From: an uncultured Planctomycetales bacterium
GTDB taxonomy: Bacteria; Planctomycetota; MHYJ01; JACPRB01
Length of the DNA stretch: 64,000 nt
Assembly: GCA_964619955.1 (NCBI GenBank)
Contig: CAZUJF010000004.1
Span: 10,595 to 74,594 of the forward strand
Direction of reading: 5' to 3'
Under the pieces are notes generated by a model. That model had not been told where the DNA came from. It did no database searches and saw only the letters and a list, made by a program, of their open reading frames with translations. Of this stretch, positions 3,781-63,489 are shown piece by piece; position 1 is the stretch's first letter, and every line of letters begins with the position of its first letter. A program made the translations under genes and the position numbers.

Positions 3781-3786
3781 GCGCGC

Positions 3787-5070: not shown

Positions 5071-5481
5071 TCGACCCGACGACGCCTTCCCAGCCGCCAG
5101 GCCTCAAGCTCCCGGCGCAAGGGGCGCCTGCGCCCCTCCTCCATGACCAGCTCGGGAAGGCTGCAGAAATGCTGTTTGAGATCAGCGGGCGACGCGGCGA
5201 TGGCGAAGTCGATGTCCCGGGAGAACTCGGCGCCGCCGTAGAGGATGCAGGCCTGCCCTCCCATCAAGAGCGCCCGCAGTCTTCTCCGGCGGAAAGTAGA
5301 AAGGACCCTGAGGATCGAAGTCGGCTTCACTCTCGCCCCCCAAGAGCAGGAAGTTCTCCCAGAGTCGTCCCGCCTCCCTGAACCGCTCGGCAGGGCTCAG
5401 GAGGTACCACTCCAGCAGGTCGTCGTCGACGGCAAGTTCGAAGAGTTCCGGCCCCGGCTTCCGCGCGATGTTCCGGCTCAC
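5067..5481 (-). pseudogene. small hypothetical gene split over two frames, possibly a frameshift near a GGGAGGG run around 5255-5275
   Basis: ORF 5182..5481 has a GTG start and a protein-like N-half. ORF 5067..5330 has a protein-like C-half (ILYGGAEFSRDIDFAIAASPADL). The two frames overlap by about 150 nt, consistent with a 1-nt indel. Confidence 0.3.
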
Positions 5482-5598
5482 GATTCAGCGAGTATAGCGG
5501 CGCTTGTCTTGTGTCACAAGCGGCGCCCCTTCACCCGGCGGATCGCGAGAAGAATCCCCCGTTTCGCGCGTTGTATCCCGTATCGGAAGGAGAGCCCC

Positions 5599-6234
5599 AT
5601 GGACCGACCCCGCTTCGACGGCGTGATCGACAGCCCCGAGGCCCTGCGCAGCCTCATCCCGCCGCCCGCCGAGCTGGCGGTGAAGAAACAGCTGACGGCG
5701 CTCGACGGCCATGCGCGGAGCTTTCTCGCGCGCTCTCCGTTCGTAGTCATCGGCACCTGCGGCCGCACGCGCGGCTGCGACGTCTCCCCGCGCGGCGAGG
5801 CCCCCGGCGGCTTTCTCGTCCTGGACGACCGCACAATCGCGATCGGCGACCGTCCGGGCAACCGGCGCACGGACTCCTTCCTCAACCTCCTTGAGAACCC
5901 GGAGATCGGCCTGCTCTTCCTCGTGCCCGGCGTGGACGAGACGCTCCGCATCAACGGCCGGGCGAAGATCGTGGTCGACGCCGGCCTGTTCCAGCGGCTG
6001 GAAGTCGGAGGCAGGCCTCCGCTCGTCGCCCTGGTGGTGGAGATCGACGAGGTCTTTTTCCAATGCGCCAAGGCGTTCCGGCGTTCGAAACTCTGGGAGC
6101 CCGCGAGCTGGCCCGACCCCGCCCTGCAGCCCACGCTCGCCCGGATGCTCAAGGATCAGATCCCGTCCTGCACCCTCGAGACCCAGGCCCTGGAGGACGT
6201 CATCCAGAAGGCGTACCGCGAAGGGCTTTATTAG
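5599..6234 (+). CDS. pyridoxamine 5'-phosphate oxidase (PNPOx)-like FMN-binding family protein
   Basis: ATG at 5599 is preceded by GGAAGGAGAG (RBS). The sequence GTCGRTRGCDVSPRGEAPGGFLVLDDRTIAIGDRPGNRRTDSFLNL..PEIGLLFLVPGVDETLRINGRA matches the PNPOx-like split-barrel family. The 5' part of ORF 5245.. is junk. Confidence 0.7.
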   Translation: MDRPRFDGVIDSPEALRSLIPPPAELAVKKQLTALDGHARSFLARSPFVVIGTCGRTRGCDVSPRGEAPGGFLVLDDRTIAIGDRPGNRRTDSFLNLLENPEIGLLFLVPGVDETLRINGRAKIVVDAGLFQRLEVGGRPPLVALVVEIDEVFFQCAKAFRRSKLWEPASWPDPALQPTLARMLKDQIPSCTLETQALEDVIQKAYREGLY

Positions 6235-6323
6235 GCACCCATATCACCTCGGAACACCGTATGGGCCGCGAAGGCGGAGCCGTTCGGCTAGCATGGAGGT
6301 TCGCCTCAGGAAAGGAGTTCTTC

Positions 6324-6854
6324 ATGCCGCTCCCCGAAACCCTCACCGTCCGGCTCAGCAAGGGACTCGTCCGCATCGACGCGCAGCCTCCCGGCGGCTC
6401 CGAAGCGGAAGCGCTCGGCCCCCTCCGCCGCAGCCTCGTCCGCACGATCGCCCGACTGGATCCGGGGAACGCCGCCGTCGCGTGCGTCTTCCATTTCCGG
6501 CTCACGGGCGGCCGGCCGCTCCTCTTCCAGGGAACGAACGCGCTGCCGCTGGAACCCGACCGCCTCTCCCAACTCCTCCTCTCGATGGGGGTCGAACTGG
6601 ACTTCGGCGAGGATCTCGACCTCGACGGCGGCGTCGCCGCCTGGCTGATCCGTCCCGAATTGAGCGCCACCGACACGAAACTTCGGCAGGCGGAGGACAA
6701 GCTCCGGGGCCTGCGCCTGATCCGGGACCGGGACGTGTCGCTGCTCCAGACCACGGAGACCCTCAAGATCCGGCTGCGCTCGCGCCTCACCCAGCTGGTG
6801 GGGGCGCTGCAGGCGGCCCAGGGCGACATCGACGCCAACGCCCCGGCCGCCTGA
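6324..6854 (+). CDS. hypothetical protein
   Basis: ATG at 6324 has an AAAGGAG RBS 6 nt upstream. 176 aa with normal composition. The antisense ORF 6200..6838 is S/R-rich junk. Confidence 0.55.
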   Translation: MPLPETLTVRLSKGLVRIDAQPPGGSEAEALGPLRRSLVRTIARLDPGNAAVACVFHFRLTGGRPLLFQGTNALPLEPDRLSQLLLSMGVELDFGEDLDLDGGVAAWLIRPELSATDTKLRQAEDKLRGLRLIRDRDVSLLQTTETLKIRLRSRLTQLVGALQAAQGDIDANAPAA

Positions 6855-9761: not shown

Positions 9762-12073
9762 GCCCCCTGCTCCACGTCCTGTTCCTGCTGGCCCAGGAGG
9801 ATCTCGACTTCTTCGAGACCCGCATCCGCCCGGTCCTCGTCGAGCACTGCTACTCCTGCCACAGCGCGAAGGCGGAGAAGCTCAAGGGCGGCCTCTACGC
9901 CGACACGAAACAGGGCCTGCTCAAGGGCGGCGACAACGGACCCGCCCTGGTCCCCGGCGAGCCCGCCAAGTCCGCGATCCTCGCCGCGCTGCGCTGGGAG
10001 TCCGAGGACACGAAAATGCCGCCCAAGAAGCGGCTCTCCGCGGAGATCGTCCGCGACTTCGAGCACTGGATCCGCAAAGGTGCCGCCGATCCGCGCGACG
10101 GTTCCATTCCGGCGGCCGCGGCGAAATCGAAGATCAACTGGGACGAGGCCCGGCGCTGGTGGGCCTTCCAGCCCGTCTCCGAACCCGCCCTGCCCGCCGT
10201 GCGGGACGCCGCCTGGCCGCTCAACGCCGTCGACCGCTTCGTGCTGTCCAAACTGGAGGAGCGGGGCCTGCGGCCCAATCCCGACGCCGAGCGCCGCGCC
10301 TGGCTGCGCCGGGTCACGTACGACCTGATCGGGCTGCCCCCGACCCCCGAGGAGGCCGAGAGCTTCCTTGCCGACGCCTCGCCGGACGCCTTCGCCCGCG
10401 TCGTCGACCGCCTGCTCGCCTCGCCCCGCTACGGCGAACGCTGGGGGCGCCACTGGCTGGACGTCGTCCGCTACGCCGACAGCGCGGGCGACAATTCCGA
10501 CTTCCCCGTCCCGCAGCACTACCGCTACCGCGACTACGTCATCGCCGCGTTCAACAGCGACAAGCCCTATCCCCAGTTCGTCCGGGAGCAGCTCGCGGGC
10601 GACCTTCTGCCCGGGGCGGGGCACGAGCAGATCATCGCCACCGGGTATCTCGCGAACGCCCGGCGCTTCGGCTCCCGGGTCGACGACTACCCCTGGCACC
10701 TCACGATCGAGGACACGATCGACAACCTGGGCCGGACCTTCCTCGGCTTCACGATCAACTGCACGCGCTGCCACGACCACAAGTTCGACCCCTTCACGAA
10801 CGAGGACTACTACGGCCTCTACGGATTCTTTTCGAGCACGCGCTATCCCTGGCCGGGCATCGAGCTGGAACAGCGGCAGCGCGATTTCGTGTCGCTCGCG
10901 GCGCCGGGCGTCGCGGAGGCGGCCCTCTCGGAGCGTGCGGCCGGACACAAGGCCATCGGAACGAAGATCAAGGAGCTCGAGGAGGCGAAGAAGACGGCGG
11001 ACAAGGAGCGCGCCGCGGCGCTCGGCAAGGAGATCGAGCAGGCGAAGAAGGAGCAGAAGGACGCCGACCGGCGCCCGCTGCCCTACCCCACCGCCTACGC
11101 CGTGGCGGAGGGCCCCAAGGCGGGGAATGCGAAGGTCCAGATCAAGGGCGATCCGGCGCGGACCGGCGTCGAAGTCCCGCGGCGCTTCCCGACCATCCTC
11201 GGAGGCCGGACCCTGCCGGCGGACGTCCCCGGAAGCGGCCGCCTGCAACTGGCCGACTGGATCGTCGACCCCGCCAATCCGCTCAGCGCCCGGGTCATGG
11301 TCAACCGGATCTGGCACCATCATTTCGGACGCGGCATCGTGGCCACGCCGAGCGACTTCGGAAAACAGGGCCGCAAGCCCACGCATCCCGAACTGCTCGA
11401 CCATCTGGCCCGGCGCTTCATCGAAAGCGGCGGCTCCGTCAAGGCGATGCACCGCCTGCTCTGCCTCTCGCGCGCCTACCGCGTGTCCACCGACGACGAA
11501 GCGCTCGCGCAGGCGGATCCCGCCAACGACCTGCTGGGACGTTATCCCCGGCGCCGCCTCGAGGCGGAGGCGATCCGGGACGCGCTGCTCGCCGTGGGCG
11601 GAGGCCTCGACCTGAGCCCGGCGGGACCGCATCCCTTCCCCGAATCGAGGGCTTGGGACTTCACGCAGCACAAGCCCTTCCTCGCGGTCTACGACCACGA
11701 CCGCCGCAGCGTCTACCTCATGACCCAGCGCATCCGGCGGCATCCCTTCTTCGGGCTCTTCGACGGGGCGGACCCGAGCGCGTCCACGTCGGCGCGCATC
11801 ACGTCCACCACCCCGCTGCAGGCCCTCTACTTTCTCAACGACGAGTTCGTGCACAAACAGGCCCAGCGCTTTGCGTCCCGGCTCGAGGGCGACGAGGCCG
11901 CGCGCATCGACCGGGCCTGGCGCCTGGCGCTGTCCCGTCCGCCCACGGACGAGGAGGCGGCCGGGGCGCGACGGTTCCTCTCCGAAATCCGCGCGGCCCA
12001 GGGCGAGGCCGCCGCCTGGCAGAGTCTCGCCCGGGTGATCTTCCGGCTGAACGAGTTCGTGTATCTGCGGTGA
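9758..12073 (+). CDS. PSD1-type protein: Planctomycete cytochrome c domain + DUF1549 + DUF1553
   Basis: CYSCHSAKAEKLKGGLY heme-binding-like motif, RPNPDAERRAWLRRVTYDLIGLPPTPEE (DUF1549), and a DUF1553 C-terminus. Translationally coupled to gntR upstream and DUF1501 downstream. Confidence 0.85.
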   Translation: MSPLLHVLFLLAQEDLDFFETRIRPVLVEHCYSCHSAKAEKLKGGLYADTKQGLLKGGDNGPALVPGEPAKSAILAALRWESEDTKMPPKKRLSAEIVRDFEHWIRKGAADPRDGSIPAAAAKSKINWDEARRWWAFQPVSEPALPAVRDAAWPLNAVDRFVLSKLEERGLRPNPDAERRAWLRRVTYDLIGLPPTPEEAESFLADASPDAFARVVDRLLASPRYGERWGRHWLDVVRYADSAGDNSDFPVPQHYRYRDYVIAAFNSDKPYPQFVREQLAGDLLPGAGHEQIIATGYLANARRFGSRVDDYPWHLTIEDTIDNLGRTFLGFTINCTRCHDHKFDPFTNEDYYGLYGFFSSTRYPWPGIELEQRQRDFVSLAAPGVAEAALSERAAGHKAIGTKIKELEEAKKTADKERAAALGKEIEQAKKEQKDADRRPLPYPTAYAVAEGPKAGNAKVQIKGDPARTGVEVPRRFPTILGGRTLPADVPGSGRLQLADWIVDPANPLSARVMVNRIWHHHFGRGIVATPSDFGKQGRKPTHPELLDHLARRFIESGGSVKAMHRLLCLSRAYRVSTDDEALAQADPANDLLGRYPRRRLEAEAIRDALLAVGGGLDLSPAGPHPFPESRAWDFTQHKPFLAVYDHDRRSVYLMTQRIRRHPFFGLFDGADPSASTSARITSTTPLQALYFLNDEFVHKQAQRFASRLEGDEAARIDRAWRLALSRPPTDEEAAGARRFLSEIRAAQGEAAAWQSLARVIFRLNEFVYLR

Positions 12074-14408: not shown

Positions 14409-14474
14409 CAACAAAACAGCCCGTCTGCTTTGTTGCCTTCCGAAGGGCAACAAAGCAGACGGGCTGTTTTGTTG
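14409..14474. repeat. nested palindromic repeat element, copy 1 of 3: CAACAAAACAGCCCGTCTGCTTTGTTGCC-loop-GGCAACAAAGCAGACGGGCTGTTTTGTTG
   Basis: 29-nt arms that are perfect inverted complements, separated by an 8-nt loop. Each arm is itself self-complementary (AACAAAaCAG..CTGcTTTGTT). Near-identical copies at 23209-23272 and 63426-63489. Confidence 0.85.
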
Positions 14475-23208: not shown

Positions 23209-23272
23209 GGGCAACAAACCAGCCCGTCTGCTTTGTTGCCTGGACAAGGCAACAAAGCAGACGGGTTTGTTG
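23209..23272. repeat. nested palindromic repeat element, copy 2 of 3 (slightly degenerate right arm)
   Basis: CAACAAACCAGCCCGTCTGCTTTGTTGCC-tggacaa-GGCAACAAAGCAGACGGGTTTGTTG. Sits in the divergent intergenic region between the NicO and DUF900 genes. Confidence 0.8.
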
Positions 23273-27214: not shown

Positions 27215-29068
27215 CTACTTTCCAATCCCCGCCGCTTGCGTAGCCACATCCTTATAGAGAACGGCTCTCTTCAGGAAGAGCAGCGCAAAGGATGTATCTA
27301 CGATGCTACACCCTTGAATCCCTGTCCAACTCCCAGCACGATCTTGTGCAGCCAAAAGCAGGGAGGCTCCTTCAGAATACCAAGAATGCCCCTGAGCGGA
27401 CTTGAGGTTGCTCAAGATCCCAGCTCGCTCCAAGGAAAAGAGATGGTAATAGAGCATCCCGGGCCCCCACCAAAGACCGCCAGGATGGCTGCCCCGGACA
27501 CTGAAAGTGAGTGACACCCATCCCCACCCACCCCAAAACATCCGGTCCCACTCGACCTCGGAGGAGGCATCCCAATCACCCAGCAACTGCAGCTCAGAAC
27601 GGACAAGAGCAATACTTGTCAAAATCGCGGTCACCATGGTCGTATTCGAAGTACTGGACCAAGATGCTCCCCGAACAATCGAACTATAGTATTGCCATCC
27701 CACAGGATAGACCTTCTTAGCAGGCATTACCCCATTGGCAAAATCGAGCGAAAGCTCCAATTCTCGACCAACCGGCGTCCCCTGAGTCTCGATACACTTA
27801 AAGGCCTTACGCCACACCATCGGTGAAATCCGGACTCCAAAGCGTGAAGCTGCCCTTAGCCCCAAGAGGGCGTATTGCATCGAGGAGAAGTTGAGTTCGT
27901 CATGACCTCGCGTGTACCCAAACGACCCATCCTTTGATTGGCAGTCCACCAAGAACGCCGCACTTAGGGCCGCCTGCTCCCTATCCTTCGCTGAAATACG
28001 CTTCTGCAACTCAATCCGAAGTTCCTGTTCAGTCATCTTCTCCAACATTCTGGAATCCAATTCGGACAGATACCGAGCCTCCAACGCGCTCAGAAACAGA
28101 GCGTGGTCGTAGGCTTGGGAGGTCTTCCGGCTGCCCAAGAATGCGAAGGCCCGCAATATTCGAGGGTCCTTCGCTGGCACGCCCGAATGAAGGAGTGCTT
28201 CCACGGCCAGCCCCGTGGAACCGTAAGACCCCAACGTGGCAATCGGATATCCTGATCGGTCTCCGAAAGACCCATCAGCACCTTGCTGAGTAAGGAGCCA
28301 CTTCATCCCACGTTCAATGGCTTCCGGAACAGCACCGTTGATCTCCCCCTCAAGATCTTTGCTCACATACCGCGAAAGCCTGAATTCCCTTGCCCCTTCC
28401 ACCGCCACAGTAAGTCCTGCGCTCCCCAATTTCAGAAACTCCTGGCCCTTGCCCGAAACTTGGTAATGCGCAGCGACAATCTTTCCATCCGAAAGATCCG
28501 TGAGTCGCTGAAACCGCATGGCGATCACAGACTTCTTGTCGTCCCAACGAACCTTTCGCTCGACCCAAAGTCCGCGAACAACAGTGACGACCCCCTCGAC
28601 AAGGGCACCTTGTTCCAAAATCCACGCGGGTGCGTCAGTCTGACTTCGCAGCTTAGCGGCCTTCAACACATCCTCCGCGGCAGCTTTCCCGACTCGTATC
28701 ACCTTGAACGTGATCTGGGCTTTCAGGGGCTCCATCAACCCAAGCGAATCAGAGAAGTATTGATGCTCCTGGCCCCACTGCTGCCCGACACCCTTGGGTT
28801 CAACGACCGGCGCGAACAGAAGACTCAAGAGTAGATCGTTGACACCACTCGCCCGCATACCGGAAGAAGCTTCGCAGCCCAGCAGAGCGAAATCGGGCAA
28901 CAAAACACCTCTCGTCCCATCCGTCACCTGATAGGTCAGAAGAGTCTCGTGCCCACCGCGGAATCTCAGATCGACGTCGGCGTTCTGTACAGCCGCAGGA
29001 CTAAATTGAGTCAGGAGAAACGCGAAAACCAACTCCTTGCGAACGCATCGAGATAAGAGGGAACCCAT
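27215..29068 (-). CDS. secreted alpha/alpha-toroid repeat protein (prenyltransferase/squalene-cyclase-like repeats) encoded on a low-GC island
   Basis: Signal peptide MGSLLSRCVRKELVFAFLLTQFSPAAV. Repeats of the type WLLTQQGADGSFGD...GSYGSTGLAVEALLHSG and DCQSKDGSFGY.....QYALLGLRAASRFG. About 52% GC against a ~70% background, with AT-rich codons (aaa, tta, ata). Confidence 0.65.
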   Translation of the reverse strand: MGSLLSRCVRKELVFAFLLTQFSPAAVQNADVDLRFRGGHETLLTYQVTDGTRGVLLPDFALLGCEASSGMRASGVNDLLLSLLFAPVVEPKGVGQQWGQEHQYFSDSLGLMEPLKAQITFKVIRVGKAAAEDVLKAAKLRSQTDAPAWILEQGALVEGVVTVVRGLWVERKVRWDDKKSVIAMRFQRLTDLSDGKIVAAHYQVSGKGQEFLKLGSAGLTVAVEGAREFRLSRYVSKDLEGEINGAVPEAIERGMKWLLTQQGADGSFGDRSGYPIATLGSYGSTGLAVEALLHSGVPAKDPRILRAFAFLGSRKTSQAYDHALFLSALEARYLSELDSRMLEKMTEQELRIELQKRISAKDREQAALSAAFLVDCQSKDGSFGYTRGHDELNFSSMQYALLGLRAASRFGVRISPMVWRKAFKCIETQGTPVGRELELSLDFANGVMPAKKVYPVGWQYYSSIVRGASWSSTSNTTMVTAILTSIALVRSELQLLGDWDASSEVEWDRMFWGGWGWVSLTFSVRGSHPGGLWWGPGMLYYHLFSLERAGILSNLKSAQGHSWYSEGASLLLAAQDRAGSWTGIQGCSIVDTSFALLFLKRAVLYKDVATQAAGIGK

Positions 29069-38695: not shown

Positions 38696-41600
38696 ATGGG
38701 AGAATTGAATCCCGAGGTCTTCCAGGACCTCCAATCCGCGGAGAAACTGCGGCCCCTCTTCGAGGCCGCCGGTCTGCCCCTCCGCACCTGGGAGGCCTAC
38801 GCCTTCGCCTTCAACGAACGCACGCTGCTCCGGCGGGAACTCACCCGCGTCTCCGAGGGCCGCGGCGCCCCCGCCATCCACCCCGAAGTCCTGGAGCGTC
38901 TCCAGGCCCTCCGCAGCGAACTCGACCCCCTCGTCGAAGGGCTCCGCCCCTTCCTCCCCCCGGGACCGCGCAGCGACGCGGAGGCCGAACTCGACGAGAT
39001 GGTCCTCGGCTTCATCGCCATCTCCCCCACCGCCCGCGACATCGCCCAGCAGTGGGTCGCGGACCCTCAACGCTACCGGGCCGAAGCCGCGAAGAAACTC
39101 CAGATCATCGAAACCGTCGTCCAGCGCTACCGGAACGCCCTGCGGACCGAGATCGACCGCGAGATCAGCTCCGGGTTCGTCCCCCCGCCGCAGATCCCGC
39201 GCCTCCCCGCCCCCGGCGTCTTCGAGGCCTCCGCGACCAACGGCGAAGTCACGCTGATCTGGAGCCCGGTCTCCGGCGCCATGCACTTCATCCTCCGCCG
39301 CGCCGTGATGAAGACCGGCCCCTGGAAGGAGATCGCGCGCCCCGCCGAGGACTGCTACAGCGACACGGGCCTTCCCAACGCCACGACGTTCTATTACACC
39401 CTGAGCCCCGTCAGCCCCGCCGGCATCGAAGGCGCCGCCGCCGGTCCCGTCGAGGCCACCCCGCAGGCCCCGCCGCCCGTCCCCGTCGGGCTCGCCGCCC
39501 GTCCCGGCAACGCGAGCGTGGCGCTCCGCTGGATGTCCTCCCCCGGCGCGATCCGCTACCGCCTCCTGCGCGCGACCTCCCCCGCGGGCCCCTTCAGCCC
39601 CGCCGCGATCACGGACGTCCCGGCCCACACGGACCGCGACGTCCAGAACGGCCAGACCTATTTCTACGCGGTCGCCTCCGTGAATCCGGCGGGGGAAAGC
39701 CCCGCCTGCCCCGCCCTGCCCGCCACCCCCGTGGCCCCGCCCCCGGCCCCCGCCGGGGTCCAGGCCCAGCCCGGCAACGCCCGCGTCAGCTGCTCGTGGC
39801 AGCCCGTCCCCGGCGCCCTCCGCTACCGGGTCGTCCGCCGCCCCGCCGCCGCGGAGGCCGGCTGGACCGAACTCGGCACGCCCGCGCAGCCGCCCCTGCT
39901 GGACGTCTCCGTCGCCAACGGCACGACCTACGAATACGCGGTGCACGCGATCAACGCCGGCGGCGAAGGCCCCGCCTCGGCCCCCGTCTCCGCCACCCCC
40001 GTCGGCGCGCCCGAGATCCCGCGCGGCCTCCGGGCCCAGGCCGGCAACGGGGAGATCACGCTGGACTGGACGCCCGTCGCGGGGGCCGTCACCTACGCCG
40101 TGCGGCGCTCCCCACCCTCGGGCGACCGCTGGACGCTCGTCGCCCAGCCGGCGTCGCCGCCGTACACGGACACGGGCCTCCCCCACGGGCAGGCCTGGCT
40201 CTACACCGTCGCGGCGCAGAACGCCGGCGGCGAAAGCCCCCCCGGCGCCCCGCTGCCCGCCGCGCCCTGCGCGCCGCCCCCCGCGCCGATGAACCTCGAG
40301 ACCCACGCGGCCAACGGACGCGTGACGCTCACGTGGCGCCCGGTGCCCGGCGCCGACCGCTATCTGCTCAAGCGCGCCGCCGCCCCGGGAGGGCCCTTCG
40401 ACCTCGTCGCCGCGATCCCCGGCCTGAGCCATCTCGACGGCGGCCTGCCGAACCACGCCACCGTCTACTACACGCTCTCCGCCGCGAACGCGGGGGGCGA
40501 GAGCACCCCCTCGGCCCCCGTGGCCGCCACCCCCGTCGAACCGCCGGCCGCCCCGGCCGACGTGACGGCGACGGCGGAGAACGCCCGCATCCGGCTCGCC
40601 TGGTCCGCCGTGCCGGGCGCGCAGCGCTATCGCGTGATGCGCTCGACGACGCCCGGCGGCCCCTACACGGCCGTCGCCAGCCCCTCCGAGCCCGCGCACG
40701 TCGACGCCGACGTGAGCAACGGCCTCTGCTACTACTATGTCATCCGCGCCCTCAACGTCGGCGGCAAGGGCCCGCATTCGGCCCAGGTCGAGGCCCGGCC
40801 CGTCGCCGCGCCCCCCGCCCCCGAAAGCCTGCTCGCCCACGCCGGCAACGGACAGGTCGCGCTGAGCTGGAATCCCGTGCCCGGCGCGACCCATTACGCG
40901 CTGCGCCGCTGGCCCGAGGACCGCATCGTCGCCACGCCCGCCGCGCCGTCCTGCCTCGACACCGGCGTGAGCAACGGCACGACGTACCGCTACGCCGTCC
41001 TCGCGCTCAACGCCGGCGGCGAAGGCCCCGCCTCCGCCCCCGTGGAGGCCACCCCGCTGGCCCCGCCCGCCGCCCCGACGGGGCTCGGCGCGCTCGCCAC
41101 GAACGCCCGCGTCGCCCTGTCCTGGACGCCCTCGCCGCGCGCCGCCGCCTACCTCGTCCGGCGCGCCGCCGGTCCCGAGGGCCTCTTCGAGACGATCGGA
41201 AGCACCGAGGCCCCCTCGTTCATCGATCTGTCCGCCAGCAACGGGACGCTCTACAGCTACCGCATCATCGCCGTCAACGCCGGGGGCGAGGGGGAGGCGA
41301 CGGCGCCCGTCGGCGCCCGGCCCCAGGCCCCGCCTCCCGCGCCGACGGGCCTCGTCGTGTCCCCCGGCAACGGGCAGGTCGGCCTCTCGTGGATACCGTC
41401 CCCGCGCGCCGCCACCTACCGGGTGCTCCGGCGGACGGGCGACGGGCCCGCGGCGGCCGTCGCCTCGCCGGTGGAGCCGCGGCATCTCGACGTCGGGCTC
41501 GAGAACGGACGCGCCTACCGCTACGTCATCCACGCGCTCAACACCGGGGGCGAAAGCGACGCGTCCGCGGAGGCGGAGGCCCTGCCGCTGGGGCCGCCGG

Positions 41601-44020
41601 GGCCGGTGGGCACCCTCGAAGCCGGCGCGGGCAACGGGCAGGTCTCGCTCGTCTGGCTCCCGGTCGAAGGGGCCGGGCTCTACGTGGTGCGGCGCGCCGT
41701 GGCGGCGGAGGGCCCCTTCGCGACGGTCGCCACGCTGACGCAGTGCGCCCACGTCGACGGCGGCCTCTCCAACGGGACGACGTACTACTACAGCGTCGCG
41801 GCGCAAAGCATCGGAGGCGAGGGTCCTTCCGCGCCCCCGACGGCCGTGGTTCCGATCGCCCCGCCCGCCGCCCCCACGGGCCTCAGCGCGTCCCCGGGCA
41901 ACGGGCAGGTCACGCTCACGTGGGCTCCCGCGGCGCGCGCCGCCGGATACCTGGTGAAACGCGCGCCGCATCCGGGCGGCGCCTTCGCCCCCGCGGCCTC
42001 GACCGTGGACCCCCTTCTCGTGGACGCGTCCCTGCAGAACGGGACGGCCTACCGCTACGTCGTCAGCGCCGTGAACCGGGGGGGCGAAAGTCCTCCGTCG
42101 GCGGAGGCGACCTGCACCCCGATCGCGCCGCCGGCGGCGCCCGCCGCGCCGACCGTGGCGGCGGGCAGCGGCGAGGTCCTGCTCCAGTGGGACCCGGTGC
42201 CCGGCGCGGATTACTACCGTCTCAAACGCGCCGTCGAGCGCAAGGGGCCCTACGCCACCATCGGCAACGTCTCGCGCCCGCGGCATCTCGATGCGGGGCT
42301 GCAGGACGGCACGACGTACTACTATGTCGTGTCCGCCGTCAACGGCGGCGGGCGCAGCGGGCACAGTCCGCGGGTCGCCGCCACGCCGCAGGCGCCGCCG
42401 CCCGCGCCGCGGGATCTGATGGCCGTGCCCGGCAGCGCGCGCGTCACGCTCAAATGGAGCGCCGTCGAGGGCGCGACCTCGTACAGCCTCAAACGCGCGG
42501 CCCGGCCCGGCGGCCCCTACCAGACGATCCTGCGCACGCCGCAGACCTCGGCGGTCGACACGCGCGTCGAGAACGGCGCCACGTATTTCTACGTCGTGCG
42601 CGCCGGCGTGAACGCGGTCAAGGGGCCGTTCTCCCCCGAGGTCTCGGCGACGCCCCTGGCCCTGCCGGCGGTGCCGTCGGGCCTGCAGGCGGTCCCCGGT
42701 CCCGGCTCCATCCGCCTCACGTGGATCCCCGTCCCGGGCGCCTCGGCCTACGTCGTCCGCCGTTCGAGCGGGGGCGGGGACTTCGAGGTCGCCGCCCATC
42801 CGGACGGTCCCGCCTGGGAGGACCTCGGGCTGCTGGACGGCGTCGCCCACGCCTACACCGTGGCCGCGGAGAATTCCGGCGGCGAAAGCGGGCCTTCGGA
42901 GCCGGCGACGTCGGCCGCGGTGGCCGCCCCGGCGGTGCCGACGGGCCTGAGGGCGGTGCCCTCGAACGGCGAGGTCACGCTCGGGTGGTCGCCGGTGCCG
43001 GGCGCGTCCCGCTACCGCGTGAAGCGGGCGTCCCTCCCGGCGGGGCCCTTCGCGACGCTGGCCGAGCCCCCGAGCCCGCTCTACACGGACACGAAGCTCG
43101 CCAACGGCGTGACGCTCTATTACGCGGTCAGCGCGATCAACGCGCACGGTGAGAGCCCGGACAGCTACCCGGCCTCCACGACGCCCGTGGGTCCGCCGCC
43201 GGTCCCCGAGAACCTGAGCGCGATCCCCGGCCCGTCGAAGATCGTCCTGGGCTGGAGTCCGGCCCCCTTCGCCGTGCGCTACCGCATCATGCGCGCGGAC
43301 GGCCCGGGCGGCCCGTACACGCTCGTGGGCAGCCCGCGGGACCCCGCGTACACCGACTGCCCGCTGGAGAACGGCCGGCCCCGGCACTACGTCGTGAGCG
43401 CGGTCAACGCCGGCGGCGAAAGCGCCAATTCGGCGGAGGTCTCGGCCGTCCCCCAGGGCGCGCCGATGCCGGAGTCCGCCGGCACGAAGACCGACGAGGT
43501 GCCCACCCTCGAATCCATCGCCATGCCCCGGGGCGAGCAGATGCAGGGGATCGACTACGAGCGCCTGCTGGACCTGCGGCGCGTGGAGCAGCTGCGCTCG
43601 CTCTTCGAGGACACCGCGCAGAAGTTCGAGGAGTGGGAGGTGCTCGCGCTCATCGCCGAGGACGGGACGGAGGCGCGGCGCTCGCTCGAGAGCCTGCTCC
43701 GCCTGAAGCGGCAGAAGCAGGCGCCGGCGTTCACGACGGGGGCCGTCGCGCTCTTCGAGAAGGTCCTCCGCGTACGGGCCCAGCACGGCGCCTTCGCGCG
43801 CAGGCTGCGGGTCTTCCTGGCGGGCCTGGACATCGCCCCGCCGGGCCCCGACACGCTGGAGATCGCGCTCGGCTTCCTCCTGCAGGCCCCGAAGGGGCGC
43901 CAGCGCATGGCCCAGTGGCTTGAGAACCCGGAGGCCTCGCGGGCCCAGGCCTCGGGCTACATGCGCATGACCTACGAAATCGCCGAGCGCTACCGCATGG
44001 CGCTCGCATCGACCGCGTGA
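38696..44020 (+). CDS. giant protein with 16 tandem fibronectin type III-like repeats (~88 aa each); no signal peptide
   Basis: Repeating unit P.AP.GL.A..GN..V.L.W..VPGA..Y.V.R...P.GP....A......TD....NG..YYY.V.A.N..GES..S..V.ATP. The out-of-frame ORFs 38680..43152 (+) and 38636..43786 (-) are R/G-rich artefacts. Confidence 0.8.
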   Translation: MGELNPEVFQDLQSAEKLRPLFEAAGLPLRTWEAYAFAFNERTLLRRELTRVSEGRGAPAIHPEVLERLQALRSELDPLVEGLRPFLPPGPRSDAEAELDEMVLGFIAISPTARDIAQQWVADPQRYRAEAAKKLQIIETVVQRYRNALRTEIDREISSGFVPPPQIPRLPAPGVFEASATNGEVTLIWSPVSGAMHFILRRAVMKTGPWKEIARPAEDCYSDTGLPNATTFYYTLSPVSPAGIEGAAAGPVEATPQAPPPVPVGLAARPGNASVALRWMSSPGAIRYRLLRATSPAGPFSPAAITDVPAHTDRDVQNGQTYFYAVASVNPAGESPACPALPATPVAPPPAPAGVQAQPGNARVSCSWQPVPGALRYRVVRRPAAAEAGWTELGTPAQPPLLDVSVANGTTYEYAVHAINAGGEGPASAPVSATPVGAPEIPRGLRAQAGNGEITLDWTPVAGAVTYAVRRSPPSGDRWTLVAQPASPPYTDTGLPHGQAWLYTVAAQNAGGESPPGAPLPAAPCAPPPAPMNLETHAANGRVTLTWRPVPGADRYLLKRAAAPGGPFDLVAAIPGLSHLDGGLPNHATVYYTLSAANAGGESTPSAPVAATPVEPPAAPADVTATAENARIRLAWSAVPGAQRYRVMRSTTPGGPYTAVASPSEPAHVDADVSNGLCYYYVIRALNVGGKGPHSAQVEARPVAAPPAPESLLAHAGNGQVALSWNPVPGATHYALRRWPEDRIVATPAAPSCLDTGVSNGTTYRYAVLALNAGGEGPASAPVEATPLAPPAAPTGLGALATNARVALSWTPSPRAAAYLVRRAAGPEGLFETIGSTEAPSFIDLSASNGTLYSYRIIAVNAGGEGEATAPVGARPQAPPPAPTGLVVSPGNGQVGLSWIPSPRAATYRVLRRTGDGPAAAVASPVEPRHLDVGLENGRAYRYVIHALNTGGESDASAEAEALPLGPPGPVGTLEAGAGNGQVSLVWLPVEGAGLYVVRRAVAAEGPFATVATLTQCAHVDGGLSNGTTYYYSVAAQSIGGEGPSAPPTAVVPIAPPAAPTGLSASPGNGQVTLTWAPAARAAGYLVKRAPHPGGAFAPAASTVDPLLVDASLQNGTAYRYVVSAVNRGGESPPSAEATCTPIAPPAAPAAPTVAAGSGEVLLQWDPVPGADYYRLKRAVERKGPYATIGNVSRPRHLDAGLQDGTTYYYVVSAVNGGGRSGHSPRVAATPQAPPPAPRDLMAVPGSARVTLKWSAVEGATSYSLKRAARPGGPYQTILRTPQTSAVDTRVENGATYFYVVRAGVNAVKGPFSPEVSATPLALPAVPSGLQAVPGPGSIRLTWIPVPGASAYVVRRSSGGGDFEVAAHPDGPAWEDLGLLDGVAHAYTVAAENSGGESGPSEPATSAAVAAPAVPTGLRAVPSNGEVTLGWSPVPGASRYRVKRASLPAGPFATLAEPPSPLYTDTKLANGVTLYYAVSAINAHGESPDSYPASTTPVGPPPVPENLSAIPGPSKIVLGWSPAPFAVRYRIMRADGPGGPYTLVGSPRDPAYTDCPLENGRPRHYVVSAVNAGGESANSAEVSAVPQGAPMPESAGTKTDEVPTLESIAMPRGEQMQGIDYERLLDLRRVEQLRSLFEDTAQKFEEWEVLALIAEDGTEARRSLESLLRLKRQKQAPAFTTGAVALFEKVLRVRAQHGAFARRLRVFLAGLDIAPPGPDTLEIALGFLLQAPKGRQRMAQWLENPEASRAQASGYMRMTYEIAERYRMALASTA
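39200..43450 (+). repeat. about 264-bp periodic tandem repeat at the DNA level (16 diverged units), internal to the FN3 giant gene
   Basis: Protein-level periodicity is visible. Units have diverged and are not identical copies. Confidence 0.6.
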
Positions 44021-51230: not shown

Positions 51231-52184
51231 ATGAAAGCCGTCCTGCTGCTGATCCTCGCCCCGCTGCTGCTCCAGGACAACGCCGTCTCCGAGGCCTTCA
51301 AGGGCCTGGGAGGAGAGGACGCCGAGCAGCGGAAGGCGTCGTTCGAGGTGCTCAAGGCCGCGCCGGACGCGCCCACGCAGACGAAACTCAAGAAGACGCT
51401 GGGCACGCTGGGCACGACCTGGCTGAAGAAGGCGCAGACCGAGCGCGCCCGGGCGCTGAGGGTCCTCGCGGTCCAGTCCCGCAAGGGCTGGAACCCCCTG
51501 GAGATCGCCGAAAAACAGAAGGCGCTGCAGGCGCTGCTCGGGGCCGGCAACACCAAGGCCATGGAAGCGCCGGTGAAGGAGCTCTGGAAGCGCACGTTCT
51601 TCGAGACGCAGGAGGCGGACAAGGACGAGAAATTCGCCGCCGCGAAGGCCCGGATCGACGAGATCGCCGCCTGGCAGAAAGCCGCCGGGGTCCCTGAGAA
51701 AGAGGGCCTGGCGCAGCTGGCGAAGGACCACTTCCGCAGCCAGGACGAGACCCAGACCTTCGCGCTGCTGGAGAAGCGCGACGCGAAGATCATGGCGGAC
51801 AACGCCGCGCTCCGCGAGAAGATCCCGGCGCCGGAGTACGCGCAGATCTGGCAGACCAACCTCTACCGGATCGTCTTCGGCCGCGCGCCGCTGAAGATCG
51901 ACGTGAAGCTCTGCGAGGCGGCGCGGGACCACTCGAAGGACATGAAGGAGAAGGACTTCTTCGACCACATGTCCCCCGTGCCGGGCAAGCGCACGCCGGG
52001 CGACCGGGCGGCGCGGATGGGGACCTCCGCGGGCGGCGAGAACATCTTCATGGGCAGCCCGAAGCCGGAGGACTCCTTCTGGGCCTGGTTCTTCAGCCTC
52101 GGCCACCACCAGAACATGGTCCGCGACTACGCCACCCTCGGCGTCGGCAACTTCGAGAAGTTCTGGACCCAGATGTTCGGGTAG
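51231..52184 (+). CDS. secreted CAP (CRISP/Ag5/PR-1, SCP-like) domain protein
   Basis: Signal peptide. The C-terminal HMSPVPGKRTPGDRAARMG...GENI..G......AWFFSLGHHQNMV..YATLGVG matches the CAP domain signature. Confidence 0.7.
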   Translation: MKAVLLLILAPLLLQDNAVSEAFKGLGGEDAEQRKASFEVLKAAPDAPTQTKLKKTLGTLGTTWLKKAQTERARALRVLAVQSRKGWNPLEIAEKQKALQALLGAGNTKAMEAPVKELWKRTFFETQEADKDEKFAAAKARIDEIAAWQKAAGVPEKEGLAQLAKDHFRSQDETQTFALLEKRDAKIMADNAALREKIPAPEYAQIWQTNLYRIVFGRAPLKIDVKLCEAARDHSKDMKEKDFFDHMSPVPGKRTPGDRAARMGTSAGGENIFMGSPKPEDSFWAWFFSLGHHQNMVRDYATLGVGNFEKFWTQMFG

Positions 52185-52209
52185 GGGCCGCCGTCCCCGC
52201 CTGGCCGCG

Positions 52210-52225
52210 ACTGCGGCCGACCCTC
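52210..52225. terminator. short palindrome GGCCGC-gact-GCGGCC between convergent genes, a possible bidirectional terminator
   Basis: 6-bp GC stem. No U-tract. Confidence 0.25.
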
Positions 52226-52230
52226 GCCTA

Positions 52231-52860
52231 TCAGTCGTCTCCCCCGCTCCAGCGCCCCGTGAAGAGGCCCTTGAGCTGCTCATGCGACGGCCACTGCCTG
52301 GGGCGCTTTCCCGTGGCCGGGAATCGGATGATCGTGTTGCCTTCGTTCAAGAGGTAATCGAAGCCCCCCGTGACGCCCGGCTCCGCAGGATAGGCGACGA
52401 ATCCAAACTTGCTGTGGTGATGAACCTTGCCGCGGGCCGGACTGCCCCCGGTGTCCTGCCCGTAGAATCGCTCGGCGCGCACGGGATCGGATTCGTCGGT
52501 CTCGAGCGCCGCGAAATAATATCCCCTGTAGGGCCGGGGGGCTTTCACCATCGGCCGGAGCGGATCCGCATCCGCTTCCGCAAGTTCCCTCGCGATCAGC
52601 TGAAGTTCCCGGCCCTGGATCACGAGATTGAAGAGCCCGGCGACATCCCCCGTCCAAAAGTCGTTCACCCCGTTCCCGTCCCGGTCGTTCGCCCGGAAAT
52701 CGGCCTCGGCGCTGGCGAGCGTCTTGAGGGCCGCCGACACGCTGCGCTCATTCGAAGCGATTTGCGACTGCCTCAACCCCCGCAGAGCGAATCCTCCGAT
52801 GACGACCAGAGCGACGCCCAGCAGCGAATACACGATGATCCGGCGTTTCTTCCGTGCCAT
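52231..52860 (-). CDS. hypothetical N-terminally membrane-anchored protein
   Basis: MARKKRRIIVYSLLGVALVVIGGFAL signal anchor, then a soluble domain (ALKTLASAEADFRANDRDGNGVNDFW). No confident family assignment. Confidence 0.5.
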   Translation of the reverse strand: MARKKRRIIVYSLLGVALVVIGGFALRGLRQSQIASNERSVSAALKTLASAEADFRANDRDGNGVNDFWTGDVAGLFNLVIQGRELQLIARELAEADADPLRPMVKAPRPYRGYYFAALETDESDPVRAERFYGQDTGGSPARGKVHHHSKFGFVAYPAEPGVTGGFDYLLNEGNTIIRFPATGKRPRQWPSHEQLKGLFTGRWSGGDD

Positions 52861-52895
52861 GGCTAAGAGTAGTGTACCCCGGCCTGGAGCGGAGG

Positions 52896-52938
52896 GGGCT
52901 CAGGCCCCGGCGCAGACGCGGCCGTGCGCGTCGCGGTG
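52896..52938. repeat. 43-bp direct repeat copy A: a duplicate of the 3' end of the thiF/moeB-like gene (42/43 identical to 53980-54022)
   Basis: GGGCTCAGGCCCCGGCGCAGACGCGGCcGTGCGCGTCGCGGTG. On the minus strand it encodes HRDAHGRVCAGA*, compared with the true gene end HRDAHCRVCAGA*. Confidence 0.8.
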
Positions 52939-52993
52939 CGTTTGCGTGTGGGCAGCCTCTGCGCGTGAAGGGGGCAGCCGTCCTCGTGAAGGC

Positions 52994-53374
52994 TCAGGCC
53001 AGCTTCGATTTGCGGACGCGGCGCCGCATGGGCTTCCGCCCGGTACCCACGGCACCCTTCACCAGGGCTTCAAAGGCCGAGCCCGCCTTGCCGGAGAGCG
53101 CCCGGCCGTCGCCCTGCAACGGCAGTTCAAGGATCATCCCCAGCGTGACGCAATTCCCGGCCAGTTCAGGCTTCTCGACGATCGTGATTTTCAGTTGGCT
53201 CTTCGCGGCACGCACCACGAGGCTTCGATAAAACCGCGCCTTCCGGCGCCAGAGCTTCAACCGTTCGATGCGGGCCTCGCTCCCGATGTTCCCGGGAACG
53301 ATCCCCCGCTTTTCCAATTCCAGCCCGCGCCGGCCCCATTCCTCGGACTGTTTGTCGAACCTCATCGCGTTCAC
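52994..53374 (-). CDS. hypothetical protein (cargo of the putative integrated cassette)
   Basis: 126 aa. ATGA overlap with the upstream GNAT gene. No recognised motif. Confidence 0.45.
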   Translation of the reverse strand: MNAMRFDKQSEEWGRRGLELEKRGIVPGNIGSEARIERLKLWRRKARFYRSLVVRAAKSQLKITIVEKPELAGNCVTLGMILELPLQGDGRALSGKAGSAFEALVKGAVGTGRKPMRRRVRKSKLA

Positions 53375-53376
53375 TC

Positions 53377-53952
53377 CTACAGCCTACCCGAAAACTCCAG
53401 GTAGTGACAGCCGTCCTCGCGGGGATCGGCTCCGAGATCCCGAAACCCCTGCGCCTTGTAATAGCGGATCGCCCCGGGCAGCGAATGAAGCCCCAGCCTC
53501 CCCTGCCACCCACGGCGGAAGCTTTCACTTCGCGCGACGGCCAGCAGCGCCGACCCGCACCCGATCACGCTCCGGGGATCCCGAAGACTCGCCCGATTGT
53601 CAGGCGCGACACTGAGGTACTCGACATACGCCTGGGGGCGGTTTGAAACCCGCGTCCGGTGCCTGACGCCGGAAACCTCGATGATCATCAGACCTTGCAA
53701 CTCTCCAAGCGCCCAGAGCGAAAAGGGGAGATACCTGCCAAGACCCGCGGCCTCGGCCAGCGAGAATTCTTTCAGGAAGCGCGACCAATTCCAGCCCGCA
53801 TCGGCCTCACCCTGCGCCGCGAGGCGGCGTTGCCACGCTTTGGCCCGCAGCCTTGCTTTTCGCCCGATCCCGGCTTCGATCGTCCCTTCGATCCCGGACG
53901 GGATGAAACCGCCTTCCTTATCGGGCTCGTTCCACAGCAGGCTGACGCGCAA
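53377..53952 (-). CDS. GNAT-family N-acetyltransferase
   Basis: The C-terminal acetyl-CoA-binding region VIGCGSALLAVARSESFRRGWQGRLGLHSLPGAIRYYKAQGFRDLG (Q/R-x-x-G-x-G/A pattern). Confidence 0.65.
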   Translation of the reverse strand: MRVSLLWNEPDKEGGFIPSGIEGTIEAGIGRKARLRAKAWQRRLAAQGEADAGWNWSRFLKEFSLAEAAGLGRYLPFSLWALGELQGLMIIEVSGVRHRTRVSNRPQAYVEYLSVAPDNRASLRDPRSVIGCGSALLAVARSESFRRGWQGRLGLHSLPGAIRYYKAQGFRDLGADPREDGCHYLEFSGRL

Positions 53953-53979
53953 TCAAGCACCCCGCTCCTCAAGACGCCC

Positions 53980-54022
53980 GGGCTCAGGCCCCGGCGCAGA
54001 CGCGGCAGTGCGCGTCGCGGTG
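53980..54022. repeat. 43-bp direct repeat copy B: the authentic 3' coding end of the thiF/moeB-like gene
   Basis: Identical to 52896-52938 except for one position. The pair brackets the GNAT + hypothetical cassette (about 1.04 kb). Confidence 0.8.
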
Positions 54023-54739
54023 GACCTTGAGCGTGCGGAACTCCATCGTCCGCAGGTCGGCGTGCAGGAGCCGGCCCACGAGCGGCTCGCCGAGGCCGCA
54101 GATGACCTTCACGGCCTCCGTCGCCGCGAGGCAGCCCAGCGCGCCCGCCACCGCCCCCAGCACCGGGAACTGCCGCTTCCAGGCGGGCGGATCGTCGGGA
54201 TACAGGCACGCGAGGCAGGGCCCCTTCCCCGGCAGAATCGTCGTCAGGCGCCCCTCGAACTCGTACATCGCCGCGTCCACCATCGGCTTGCCGCGCTTCA
54301 CGATCTCCCCGTTCAGCGCAAAACGCTCCTGGAAGAGCGGCGCGGCGTCCACCACGAGGTCCGCCTCCCCCACCAGCCGCGCGACGTTCGAGGCGTCCAC
54401 GTTCGCCGGGACCGTGAGCAGTTCCACCCGCGGATTCAGCTCGCGCAGGCGGGCCGACGCCGACTCCACCCGCTTCTTGCCGATCCCCGCGGCCGTCATC
54501 AGCGTCTGCCGGTTCAGGTCCCCCGCGCGGATCTTCCCCTCGTGCGCCAGGATGAGCTTCCCCACCCCCGCCGCCGCCAGGTACGTCGCCGCCGCGCCGC
54601 CCACCCCGCCGATGCGCGTCACCAGGACCGAGGCCGCCTTGAGCTTCTCCTGCGCCGCCTCCCCGAAGCCGGGGATGGACAGCTGCCACTCGTAGACGGC
54701 TTTCTCATCGCTGCTCAGCAGGGCGCGGGAGCGGGGCAT
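53984..54739 (-). CDS. ThiF/MoeB/HesA-family E1-like adenylyltransferase
   Basis: Nucleotide-binding motif VLVTRIGGVGGAAATYLAAAGVGKL. CxxC zinc motifs CLACL and CRVCAG. 251 aa. Confidence 0.85.
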   Translation of the reverse strand: MPRSRALLSSDEKAVYEWQLSIPGFGEAAQEKLKAASVLVTRIGGVGGAAATYLAAAGVGKLILAHEGKIRAGDLNRQTLMTAAGIGKKRVESASARLRELNPRVELLTVPANVDASNVARLVGEADLVVDAAPLFQERFALNGEIVKRGKPMVDAAMYEFEGRLTTILPGKGPCLACLYPDDPPAWKRQFPVLGAVAGALGCLAATEAVKVICGLGEPLVGRLLHADLRTMEFRTLKVHRDAHCRVCAGA

Positions 54740-55018
54740 CTATCCTCCGGAGATCGGGGTCAGGATCGTGACGTTGTCCCCACCCTTCAACAGCCGGTGG
54801 TCGCCGGAGCGCACCTGCTCGTCGCCGAGGACGACCAGCAGCGCGGGATGAGGACAGCCGTGCGTGTCGAGGGCCAGCAGGCGGAACGCCGTGCCGTGCT
54901 GGCGCGCCAGGCGGACGATGAGGTCGTGCACCGAGATGGGCTCGTCGAGGTCGATCTCCTCCCGGTCCAGCCCCGTCGCCGCGCGCGCCTGAGCCGAGTA
55001 GCGGATGTTCAGCTTCAT
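54740..55018 (-). CDS. MoaD/ThiS-family ubiquitin-like sulfur carrier protein (C-terminal GG)
   Basis: 92 aa ending ...NVTILTPISGG*. Sits immediately upstream of thiF/moeB, with stop-start abutting at 54739/54740. Confidence 0.75.
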   Translation of the reverse strand: MKLNIRYSAQARAATGLDREEIDLDEPISVHDLIVRLARQHGTAFRLLALDTHGCPHPALLVVLGDEQVRSGDHRLLKGGDNVTILTPISGG

Positions 55019-63399: not shown

Positions 63400-63425
63400 T
63401 TCCTACCGCCAGGTAGCCCCAACCC

Positions 63426-63489
63426 AACAAAACAGCCCGTCTGCTTTGTTGCCTCTGCGGGGCAACAAAGCAGACGGGCTGTTTTGTTG
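63426..63489. repeat. nested palindromic repeat element, copy 3 of 3
   Basis: CAACAAAACAGCCCGTCTGCTTTGTTGCC-tctgcgg-GGCAACAAAGCAGACGGGCTGTTTTGTTG. The arms are identical to copy 1. Between convergent genes. Confidence 0.85.

Follow-up and report, generated by a model that had tools for sequence, protein, structure and literature searches.

The 64,000-nt stretch of DNA considered here (the window) comes from an uncultured Planctomycetales bacterium (GenBank assembly GCA_964619955.1, contig CAZUJF010000004.1). At the 3' end of its moeB/thiF gene, a molybdenum-cofactor gene, lies a segment of 1,041 bp (52939-53979) that is compositionally foreign to its host and is bracketed by two direct copies of a 43-nt sequence spanning the gene end. 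Between the copies, the list of open reading frames (ORFs) holds exactly two co-directional minus-strand genes, one for an acetyltransferase of predicted GNAT fold and one for a smaller protein, termed here the partner. A first-pass annotation of the window, made from its letters alone, had counted the same two genes (with 126 aa for the partner) in an interval of about 1.04 kb, and had read the arrangement as the scar of an integrated element.

The 43-nt Direct Repeat

The sequences at 52896-52938 and 53980-54022 form a direct repeat in which 42 of 43 positions are identical, as seen by repeat finder, pattern search, and reading of the sequence. The former reads GGGCTCAGGCCCCGGCGCAGACGCGGCCGTGCGCGTCGCGGTG and the latter is the same except for a single mismatch, with plus-strand C at 52923 opposed to A at 54007. 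A pattern search tolerating up to three mismatches found exactly two copies of the 43-mer in the 64 kb, against 0.00 expected over 100 shuffles, and, setting aside one tandem-domain gene and a family of REP-like palindromes, it is the sole near-perfect dispersed direct repeat of at least 28 nt in the window. Local alignment of the flanks shows similarity ending sharply at both edges of the repeat, and neither a degenerate third copy nor a gapped extension was found by alignment. Both copies, complete with their mismatch, recur within an identical 2.6 kb in the Logan assemblies of SRR13076500 and SRR13076517; this base-for-base match in two independent assemblies rules out an assembly artefact and bears out the one-mismatch 43-bp duplication as first annotated. 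A generic motif or terminator, which the annotation had named as a possible undoing of its reading, is likewise ruled out: the window has two copies only, no terminator or promoter signal is associated with them, matches in Rfam are at noise level, and the 36-nt core has no match in IMG/VR.

The copy adjoining moeB (53980..54022, minus strand; proximal and attL-like) comprises the last 12 moeB codons (HRDAHCRVCAGA; 36 nt), the stop codon (53984-53986), and 4 nt past the stop (53980-53983). The repeat had been described as the last 43 nt of the gene; it does take in the gene end, and it runs 4 nt beyond it. The distal, attR-like copy (52896..52938, minus strand) is displaced and non-coding, lies within no credible gene, and would encode HRDAHGRVCAGA followed by a stop, with TGC changed to GGC such that a cysteine of the C-terminal CxxC becomes glycine. 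The proximal copy holds the functional cysteine codon TGC, and that cysteine is conserved among MoeB relatives.

The Empty Site in Related Genomes

Nine related moeB loci, on contigs found via protein search, form the comparison set. In the nearest of these (L025; MoeB 81% identical) moeB is followed by a short intergenic stretch and then by a homologue (52% amino acid identity) of the DUF2950-like gene that lies beyond the insert in the window, with no GNAT pair between the two; this is the direct succession of moeB and the 52231 gene that the first-pass annotation had expected of an empty site. When the 1,041 bp and one of the two repeat copies are taken out of the window sequence, the resulting virtual empty site is colinear with L025 across the junction. 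The contigs of L115 and L116 (MoeB 76%) end approximately 55-75 nt after moeB, and their post-stop sequence (CCCTCCGG..) matches the flank of the distal copy (GCCC-CCTCCGC..; common motif CCCTCCG) and not that of the proximal copy. The distal copy and its flank are therefore the native moeB end, and the insertion created the joint that follows the proximal copy. In L026-L028 (MoeB 71%) and L029/L030 (72%) the cluster upstream of moeB is whole and its gene order is kept, while the downstream region has either nothing before a kinase gene or a different 6.6-kb gene set; the interval from moeB to the kinase gene is a variable spot among relatives. Neither the GNAT nor the partner gene occurs in any of the nine loci, which span three downstream arrangements, and a duplicated moeB end was found in none of them.

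The GC content at third codon positions (GC3) is 0.755 in the GNAT gene and 0.815 in the partner gene, compared with 0.928±0.021 (minimum 0.889) in 30 host genes, a set chosen with a cut-off of 0.80. The pair is more than 5 standard deviations (SD) below the host genes, the GC profile dips at the insert, and the pair is compositionally foreign. Because the site is empty in relatives, the pair is absent from their moeB loci, and its GC3 is foreign, the 1,041-bp segment is a well-supported, real insertion exactly at the moeB 3' end that leaves the target gene intact.

Some further material was considered for these comparisons. The moeB loci of GTDB representatives were dropped as sources of an empty site, since the nearest MoeB proteins, from Planctomycetaceae, Phycisphaerales, and Tepidisphaeraceae metagenome-assembled genomes (MAGs), are only 60-62% identical and too distant. 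The locus L117 was rejected as a second copy adjacent to moeB and the kinase gene on account of its unrelated, low-GC context. No contig variant with an empty site was found in the same samples.

The DUF2950-like neighbor is also low in GC3 (0.80), and its identity to the L025 homologue is well below the 81% of MoeB. The gene may have been acquired earlier at this spot, or it may simply evolve fast; since L025 has it, it predates the GNAT insertion.

Organization of the Insert and Its Surroundings

All features described in this section are on the minus strand unless otherwise noted. The target gene, moeB/thiF (53984..54739; 251 aa; GC3 0.96), is intact and matches Pfam ThiF (E=8.7e-55), and NCBIfam MoeB models match its product with E-values of 1e-67 to 1e-47, all below the equivalog cut-offs. 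It is the final gene of a conserved cluster, and the local order runs from genes for a pyrroloquinoline quinone (PQQ)-repeat protein, a 484-aa double substrate-binding protein, a permease, an ATP-binding cassette (ABC) ATPase, and MoaD/ThiS (54740-55018) through MoeB/ThiF to GNAT, partner, and the DUF2950-like protein. The last of these (52231..52860; 209 aa; Pfam DUF2950 E=3.3e-5) is a native neighbor outside the insert and starts 35 nt after the distal repeat copy. Beyond it, on the opposite strand, are a CAP-domain gene and a 1,365-aa Ser/Thr kinase gene.

Within the insert, a 27-nt leader (53953..53979), read from the sequence, separates the proximal repeat from the TTG start of the GNAT gene (53377-53952; 191 aa). 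It carries a Shine-Dalgarno-like GAGGAG (53965-53970) 12 nt ahead of the start codon and has no DNA similarity to the region upstream of the homologous GNAT pair in L007. A scan for sigma-70-type promoters only detected no promoter-like site in 52100-54900, leader included. As only 27 nt with a ribosome-binding-like site precede the pair and no promoter-like site was detected, the pair is probably transcribed by read-through from the moeB operon. The partner gene (52994-53365) encodes 123 aa from an ATG, or 126 aa from a GTG at 53374, and its stop codon is followed by a 55-nt spacer (52939..52993, likewise read from the sequence) that leads to the distal repeat. The spacer is occupied by two adjacent, half-conserved units of 21 and 22 nt, CCTTCACG-N5-GGCTGCCC (52972-52992) and CCTTCACG-N6-GGCTGCCC (52950-52971), a motif that pattern searches found confined to this genome and to which Tandem Repeats Finder (TRF) gives no score.

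The GNAT Protein and Its Partner

The product of the first cargo gene is predicted to have a GNAT fold. Its AlphaFold2 model, based on an alignment of 15 homologues, has a predicted local distance difference test score (pLDDT) of 91.1 and a predicted template modeling score (pTM) of 0.89, and Foldseek pairs it with many solved GNATs at probability 1.0 and TM-scores of 0.43-0.68, with no specific subfamily prominent. At the level of sequence, the protein has a sub-threshold Pfam match to Acetyltransf_10 (E=0.0094; 16.4 bits versus a cut-off of 23.6), which its relative in L032 passes at 25.3 bits. The block ..RSVIGCGSAL.. (conserved as ..P-R-x-x-x-G-C-G-S-A-L..) agrees with the acetyl-CoA-binding motif Q/R-x-x-G-x-G/A. 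The family is rare, with only 16 clusters among 5.8 billion proteins in a word-indexed search; a degenerate-pattern scan added 183 more distant stretches in metagenomes, and tblastn found 52 plasmids, mainly megaplasmids of Nostocales and some of Rhizobiales, and no phage matches.

The partner protein has no match in Pfam, NCBIfam, PADLOC, PHROGs, or PDB sequences by profile search, and its structure model (pLDDT 58.5) is unreliable and unusable for a fold search. It is a constant companion of GNATs of this clade: an ORF homologous to it lies directly downstream of GNAT in L003, L004, L007, L031-L034, and L036, and a co-directional ORF starts right behind GNAT in all 80 loci whose sequence extends 450 nt or more downstream. 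These downstream proteins can be sub-grouped into three types. Type A (~177 aa; 35 loci) is cyanobacterial, type B (~162 aa; 29 loci) has an XRE-type helix-turn-helix (HTH) and in 27 loci is accompanied by an upstream gene of ~70 aa resembling ribbon-helix-helix (RHH) proteins, and type C (126-139 aa) is found in 9 loci, the window included. A search for signs of a common origin of the three types by hhalign brought out only a weak, short N-terminal motif in common (probability 0.5-22%). In two database proteins, P0011 and P0015, GNAT and partner are fused. The strict pairing, these fusions, and residence on plasmids and islands together suggest that GNAT and partner constitute a self-contained two-component module, toxin/antidote-like or regulatory in nature.

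In some loci a second, diverged partner-like paralogue adjoins the pair (L007, 1335-1607; L117, 138-545). On a plasmid of Shinella sumterensis (L112; NZ_CP132304.1, 15512-23961), a gene string consists of an RHH-like gene, GNAT, an XRE-HTH partner, and, downstream, an ImmA/IrrE peptidase gene; it adjoins a ThiF/multiubiquitin/DUF6527 cluster and IS66 copies, a neighborhood that has the appearance of a defence island.

Homologous Pairs Near Integrase Genes and on an Island

Close homologues of the pair are found next to tyrosine recombinases. In L003 a type C pair lies directly behind two tandem Phage_integrase genes of 305 and 326 aa, and in L004, on a planctomycete-like MAG contig (GCA_964604905.1), it lies directly behind a fragment of an integrase (88 aa) sharing 62% identity with residues 238-316 of the 326-aa L003 enzyme. 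The L004 pair is part of an island of ~11 kb between direct repeats of ~144 nt (111-254 and 11103-11246), the last 82 nt of which are identical; the repeat has a tRNA-like T-arm, yet ARAGORN calls no tRNA. The island also encodes a 415-aa integrase, several toxin-antitoxin genes (PhdYeFM/ParE, Unstab_antitox), and a DUF3368 gene, contains four copies of the 26-mer TGAAAACTAGGCCACTGACTAGGCCA, and has the GNAT pair ~120 nt from its right-hand repeat copy. An architecture of integrase, GNAT, partner, and att-like repeat thus exists elsewhere, and the window has the same right-hand end without the integrase.

The L003 gene string (1608-6753) comprises a 741-aa protein with a weak primase-like match, the two recombinases, which are 41% identical to each other, GNAT, and partner; the string may represent a small integrative element whose recombinases come as a pair. 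In two distantly related cyanobacterial loci the module is bracketed by direct repeats, of ~55 nt in L082 (568-623 and 1961-2014; 1.39 kb apart) and of ~220 nt in L108 (104-320 and 3327-3544; 3.2 kb apart), neither of which has a match in the plasmid collection. The L082 module sits between a membrane-protein gene and a long convergent gene, which from its sequence we take to encode arginine decarboxylase, and its GNAT gene has an internal stop. A small ORF upstream of GNAT in L007 and L032-L036, whose end (LGHSRNR..AYLLI) resembles an integrase C-terminus by eye, was entertained as an integrase remnant and rejected, with an hhalign probability of 0.2% and nothing in Pfam.

Comparison With Known Elements

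The structure at the moeB end resembles a cis-mobilizable element (CIME) or a decayed island at a gene 3' end. CIMEs retain attL and attR after loss of their integration and transfer genes, and integration at 3' ends is established (PMC5704250). The window insert is alike in that direct repeats bracket it, one of them overlapping and reconstituting the 3' end of a protein-coding gene, and in that its content is foreign, no integration or transfer genes lie inside, and related genomes have an empty site. It differs in that no autonomous element or integrase sharing its att site was found in the window, in IMG/VR, or at the moeB ends of relatives; the other features of the class that were examined are present. 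At 1.04 kb and two genes, the insert is smaller than any CIME that we know of; CIMEs related to ICESt1 and ICESt3 were reportedly described by Pavlovic et al. in 2004 at the 3' end of fda in Streptococcus thermophilus. As far as checked, the moeB/thiF 3' end as an integration site and Planctomycetota as a host are new for such elements.

Small modules that lack a recombinase are also exemplified by the Xer-dependent pdif modules of Acinetobacter plasmids and by IMEX elements, which are 1-2 kb in size, often carry toxin-antitoxin genes, and have short bounding sites and a recombinase encoded elsewhere. The small recombinase-less module is what the window has in common with pdif modules; pdif sites are 28-bp XerC/XerD sites, usually inverted and not copied from gene ends, whereas those in the window are 43 bp long, lie in direct orientation, and copy a coding 3' end. 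Integron cassettes are likewise compact, and the insert shares with them the lack of a detected promoter and an orientation with the upstream operon. However, integron insertion does not duplicate 43 bp of target, neither an attC-like site nor a GTTRRRY core is visible by eye at the joints, and the searches of window genes gave no integron integrase. Spacer and distal copy together (52880-53000; 121 nt) have a folding energy no different from that of shuffled sequences (z = -1.47). Transposons are marked by terminal inverted repeats, a transposase, and a short target duplication; here no inverted repeat was seen to pair the insert ends, the searches of window genes gave no transposase, and the duplication measures 43 bp.

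With respect to its cargo, the module invites comparison with the type II toxin-antitoxin systems that combine a GNAT toxin with an RHH (DUF1778) antitoxin, such as TacAT, AtaRT, KacAT, and ItaRT (PMC9177977, PMC6698736). In both cases a small GNAT enzyme belongs to a tight two-gene module that occurs on plasmids and islands, and an RHH-like upstream gene is present in a distant branch only of the same GNAT family. In the window itself there is no upstream antitoxin gene, just the 27 nt of the leader, and the partner is downstream and has no RHH/DUF1778 match. The window GNAT has no sequence match to solved GNAT toxins, and its structural likeness to a toxin (7byy_C) is no better than to generic GNATs.

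Origin of the Insertion

Site-specific integration followed by decay, or trans-mobilization of a minimal element, is the most likely origin of the structure, and we would give it about an even chance. Under this proposal, a foreign 1,041-bp segment carrying GNAT and its dedicated partner would have been inserted exactly at the moeB 3' end by a tyrosine recombinase that was supplied in trans or has since been lost. The event would have duplicated, or imported a copy of, the last 39 nt of moeB and 4 nt beyond, with the promoter-proximal copy keeping moeB intact and the distal copy left as a dead remnant with its Cys-to-Gly change. The two 43-mers would then be attL and attR, and the structure a minimal, CIME-like islet devoid of an integrase. 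The predicted junction of the empty site is moeB, a single 43-mer, and CCTCCGCTCC; that of the excised circle of 1,084 bp would be ..CACGCAAACG, the 43-mer, and GGGCGTCTTGAGG... A candidate core site is the imperfect palindrome GCGACGCGC-N6-GCGTCTGCGC inside the 43-mer, which has the geometry of a tyrosine-recombinase core, and the single repeat mismatch falls in its 6-nt spacer, in the copy that is not under selection. In favor of site-specific integration, homologous pairs are repeatedly linked to integrases and islands. The first-pass annotation had proposed just such an integration with reconstitution of the gene; the insertion, the duplicated gene end, and the intact gene all stand, while that a recombinase made the joints is something that we infer and do not regard as proven.

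Several results weigh against this proposal. The palindrome is no more than weak evidence of recombination: its stability is not significantly above that of shuffled sequence (z = -1.4 and -2.1), and it is fully kept only in the nearest relative, L025, by a compensatory change, carries a single mismatch in L115, and is not seen in more distant relatives. The insert has only its two ORFs and no recombinase among them, tblastn of the window with three integrases returned nothing, and Pfam scans of 20 mid-sized window genes, whose content is typically planctomycete (DUF1501, DUF1552, Usp, TerC), revealed no integrase, resolvase, or transposase; the earlier statement that no integrase remains thus holds for the insert and for the window genes searched. 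No element in IMG/VR carries the same 36-mer, and none of the relatives showed another occupied moeB 3' end. Had a larger island decayed, its deletion would have had to stop at most 27 nt from attL; barring the use of a secondary att site, this is unlikely. Lastly, direct repeats bound the modules of L082 and L108 and the L004 island as a whole; the pairs of L003, L004, and L007 have no short repeats immediately bracketing them, which makes the pair a cargo rather than a self-contained cassette with a constant repeat signature.

The same final topology would be reached by insertion without any recombinase, the rival that comes next in likelihood and that we hold to be less probable. Here, a small circle containing the pair and a fragment of the moeB end would have entered in Campbell fashion, through one RecA-type crossover in the 43 bp, or DNA from a close relative would have been anchored by homology in moeB while its far end was joined illegitimately 39 nt before the resident stop, the repeat being in either case a by-product of homology. 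The searches of the window and IMG/VR, which turned up no recombinase or cognate element, are in keeping with such a route, as is the want of a constant flanking repeat around other homologous pairs. A 10-mer, GGCCTGAGCC, that ends both repeat copies as well as the partner gene (three of its four window occurrences are here, with 0.56 expected window-wide) hints at the use of microhomology; it is, however, partly and perhaps largely explained by the conserved ..KLA-stop coding end, and the repeat edges are sharp and the novel joints without microhomology. Moreover, homologous recombination would have had just 43 bp to act on, which is very short, a circle would need to have gained a moeB end beforehand, and the recurrent linkage of homologous pairs to integrases and islands also speaks against this route.

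Two other explanations fare much worse. The repeat could be a long target-site duplication, produced if a non-autonomous element was moved in trans by an enzyme of transposase or casposase type, whose cuts, staggered by 43 nt, were then filled in. A sharp-edged duplicate consisting exactly of target sequence, and an insert that has no recombinase of its own, would fit; we nevertheless consider this highly improbable, as terminal inverted repeats at the insert ends are missing both from the listed inverted-repeat pairs and by eye, the window yielded no transposase, and an insert placed exactly at a gene end with the gene preserved is typical of att-site integration. A length of 43 bp also far exceeds the duplications that transposases or casposases are known to make. 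Even harder to credit is that nothing was inserted, the order moeB-GNAT-partner being ancestral and lost in relatives, with the repeat arising from local duplication or gene conversion. Relatives are admittedly few, with the nearest at only 81% MoeB identity, and the neighboring DUF2950-like gene shares the low GC3. Against loss stand the absence of the pair from nine related loci with three downstream arrangements, its GC3 deficit of more than 5 SD, the location of its closest homologues in unrelated contexts on islands, and the repeat itself, since exact bracketing of a foreign segment is what insertion, and not loss, predicts.

A bolder version of site-specific integration would have the pair as a ~1-kb "micro-island," mobilized in trans and carrying neither a recombinase nor a detected promoter, whose cargo is an undescribed toxin/antidote-like or defence system. 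A recombinase encoded elsewhere would plug such units into operon ends, using the duplicated gene end as recombination site, and the bracketed modules of L082 and L108, two unrelated cyanobacterial contigs, would be instances of the same phenomenon. We regard this as improbable.

Other Features of the Window

A palindromic intergenic element of ~54 nt, CAACAAAACAGCCCGTCTGCTTTGTTGCC...GGCAACAAAGCAGACGGG, occurs three times in the window (14409-14462, 23212-23265, and 63425-63478) and is similar to a repetitive extragenic palindromic (REP) element or to a terminator hairpin in shared use. In L115 and L116 the moeB stop codon is directly followed by a long palindrome of a related kind that contains AAGCAGACGG (L115, ~1565-1628), at the point where both contigs end. 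The largest repeat families of the window originate from an ORF of 1,774 aa (38696-44020) composed of ~14 tandem units of ~267 nt (89 aa). The gene for a 617-aa protein at 27215-29068 (minus strand) has GC3 below 0.80 and may be another foreign gene; its product has weak, sub-threshold matches to TED_complement and SQHop_cyclase_C, of the prenyltransferase/terpenoid-cyclase-like kind.

Significance

The integration scar is in itself a familiar and ordinary kind of event and opens no new question. The locus does provide a clean, dated example in which the end of a conserved operon, in the poorly studied Planctomycetota, has gained a tiny foreign module without damage to the target gene. It also draws attention to a GNAT family, as yet uncharacterised, that without exception has a downstream partner of one of three types; the family is represented on 52 plasmids and in no fewer than 183 stretches of metagenome sequence. 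GNAT and partner together could reasonably be put forward as a candidate new module, toxin-antitoxin-like or regulatory.

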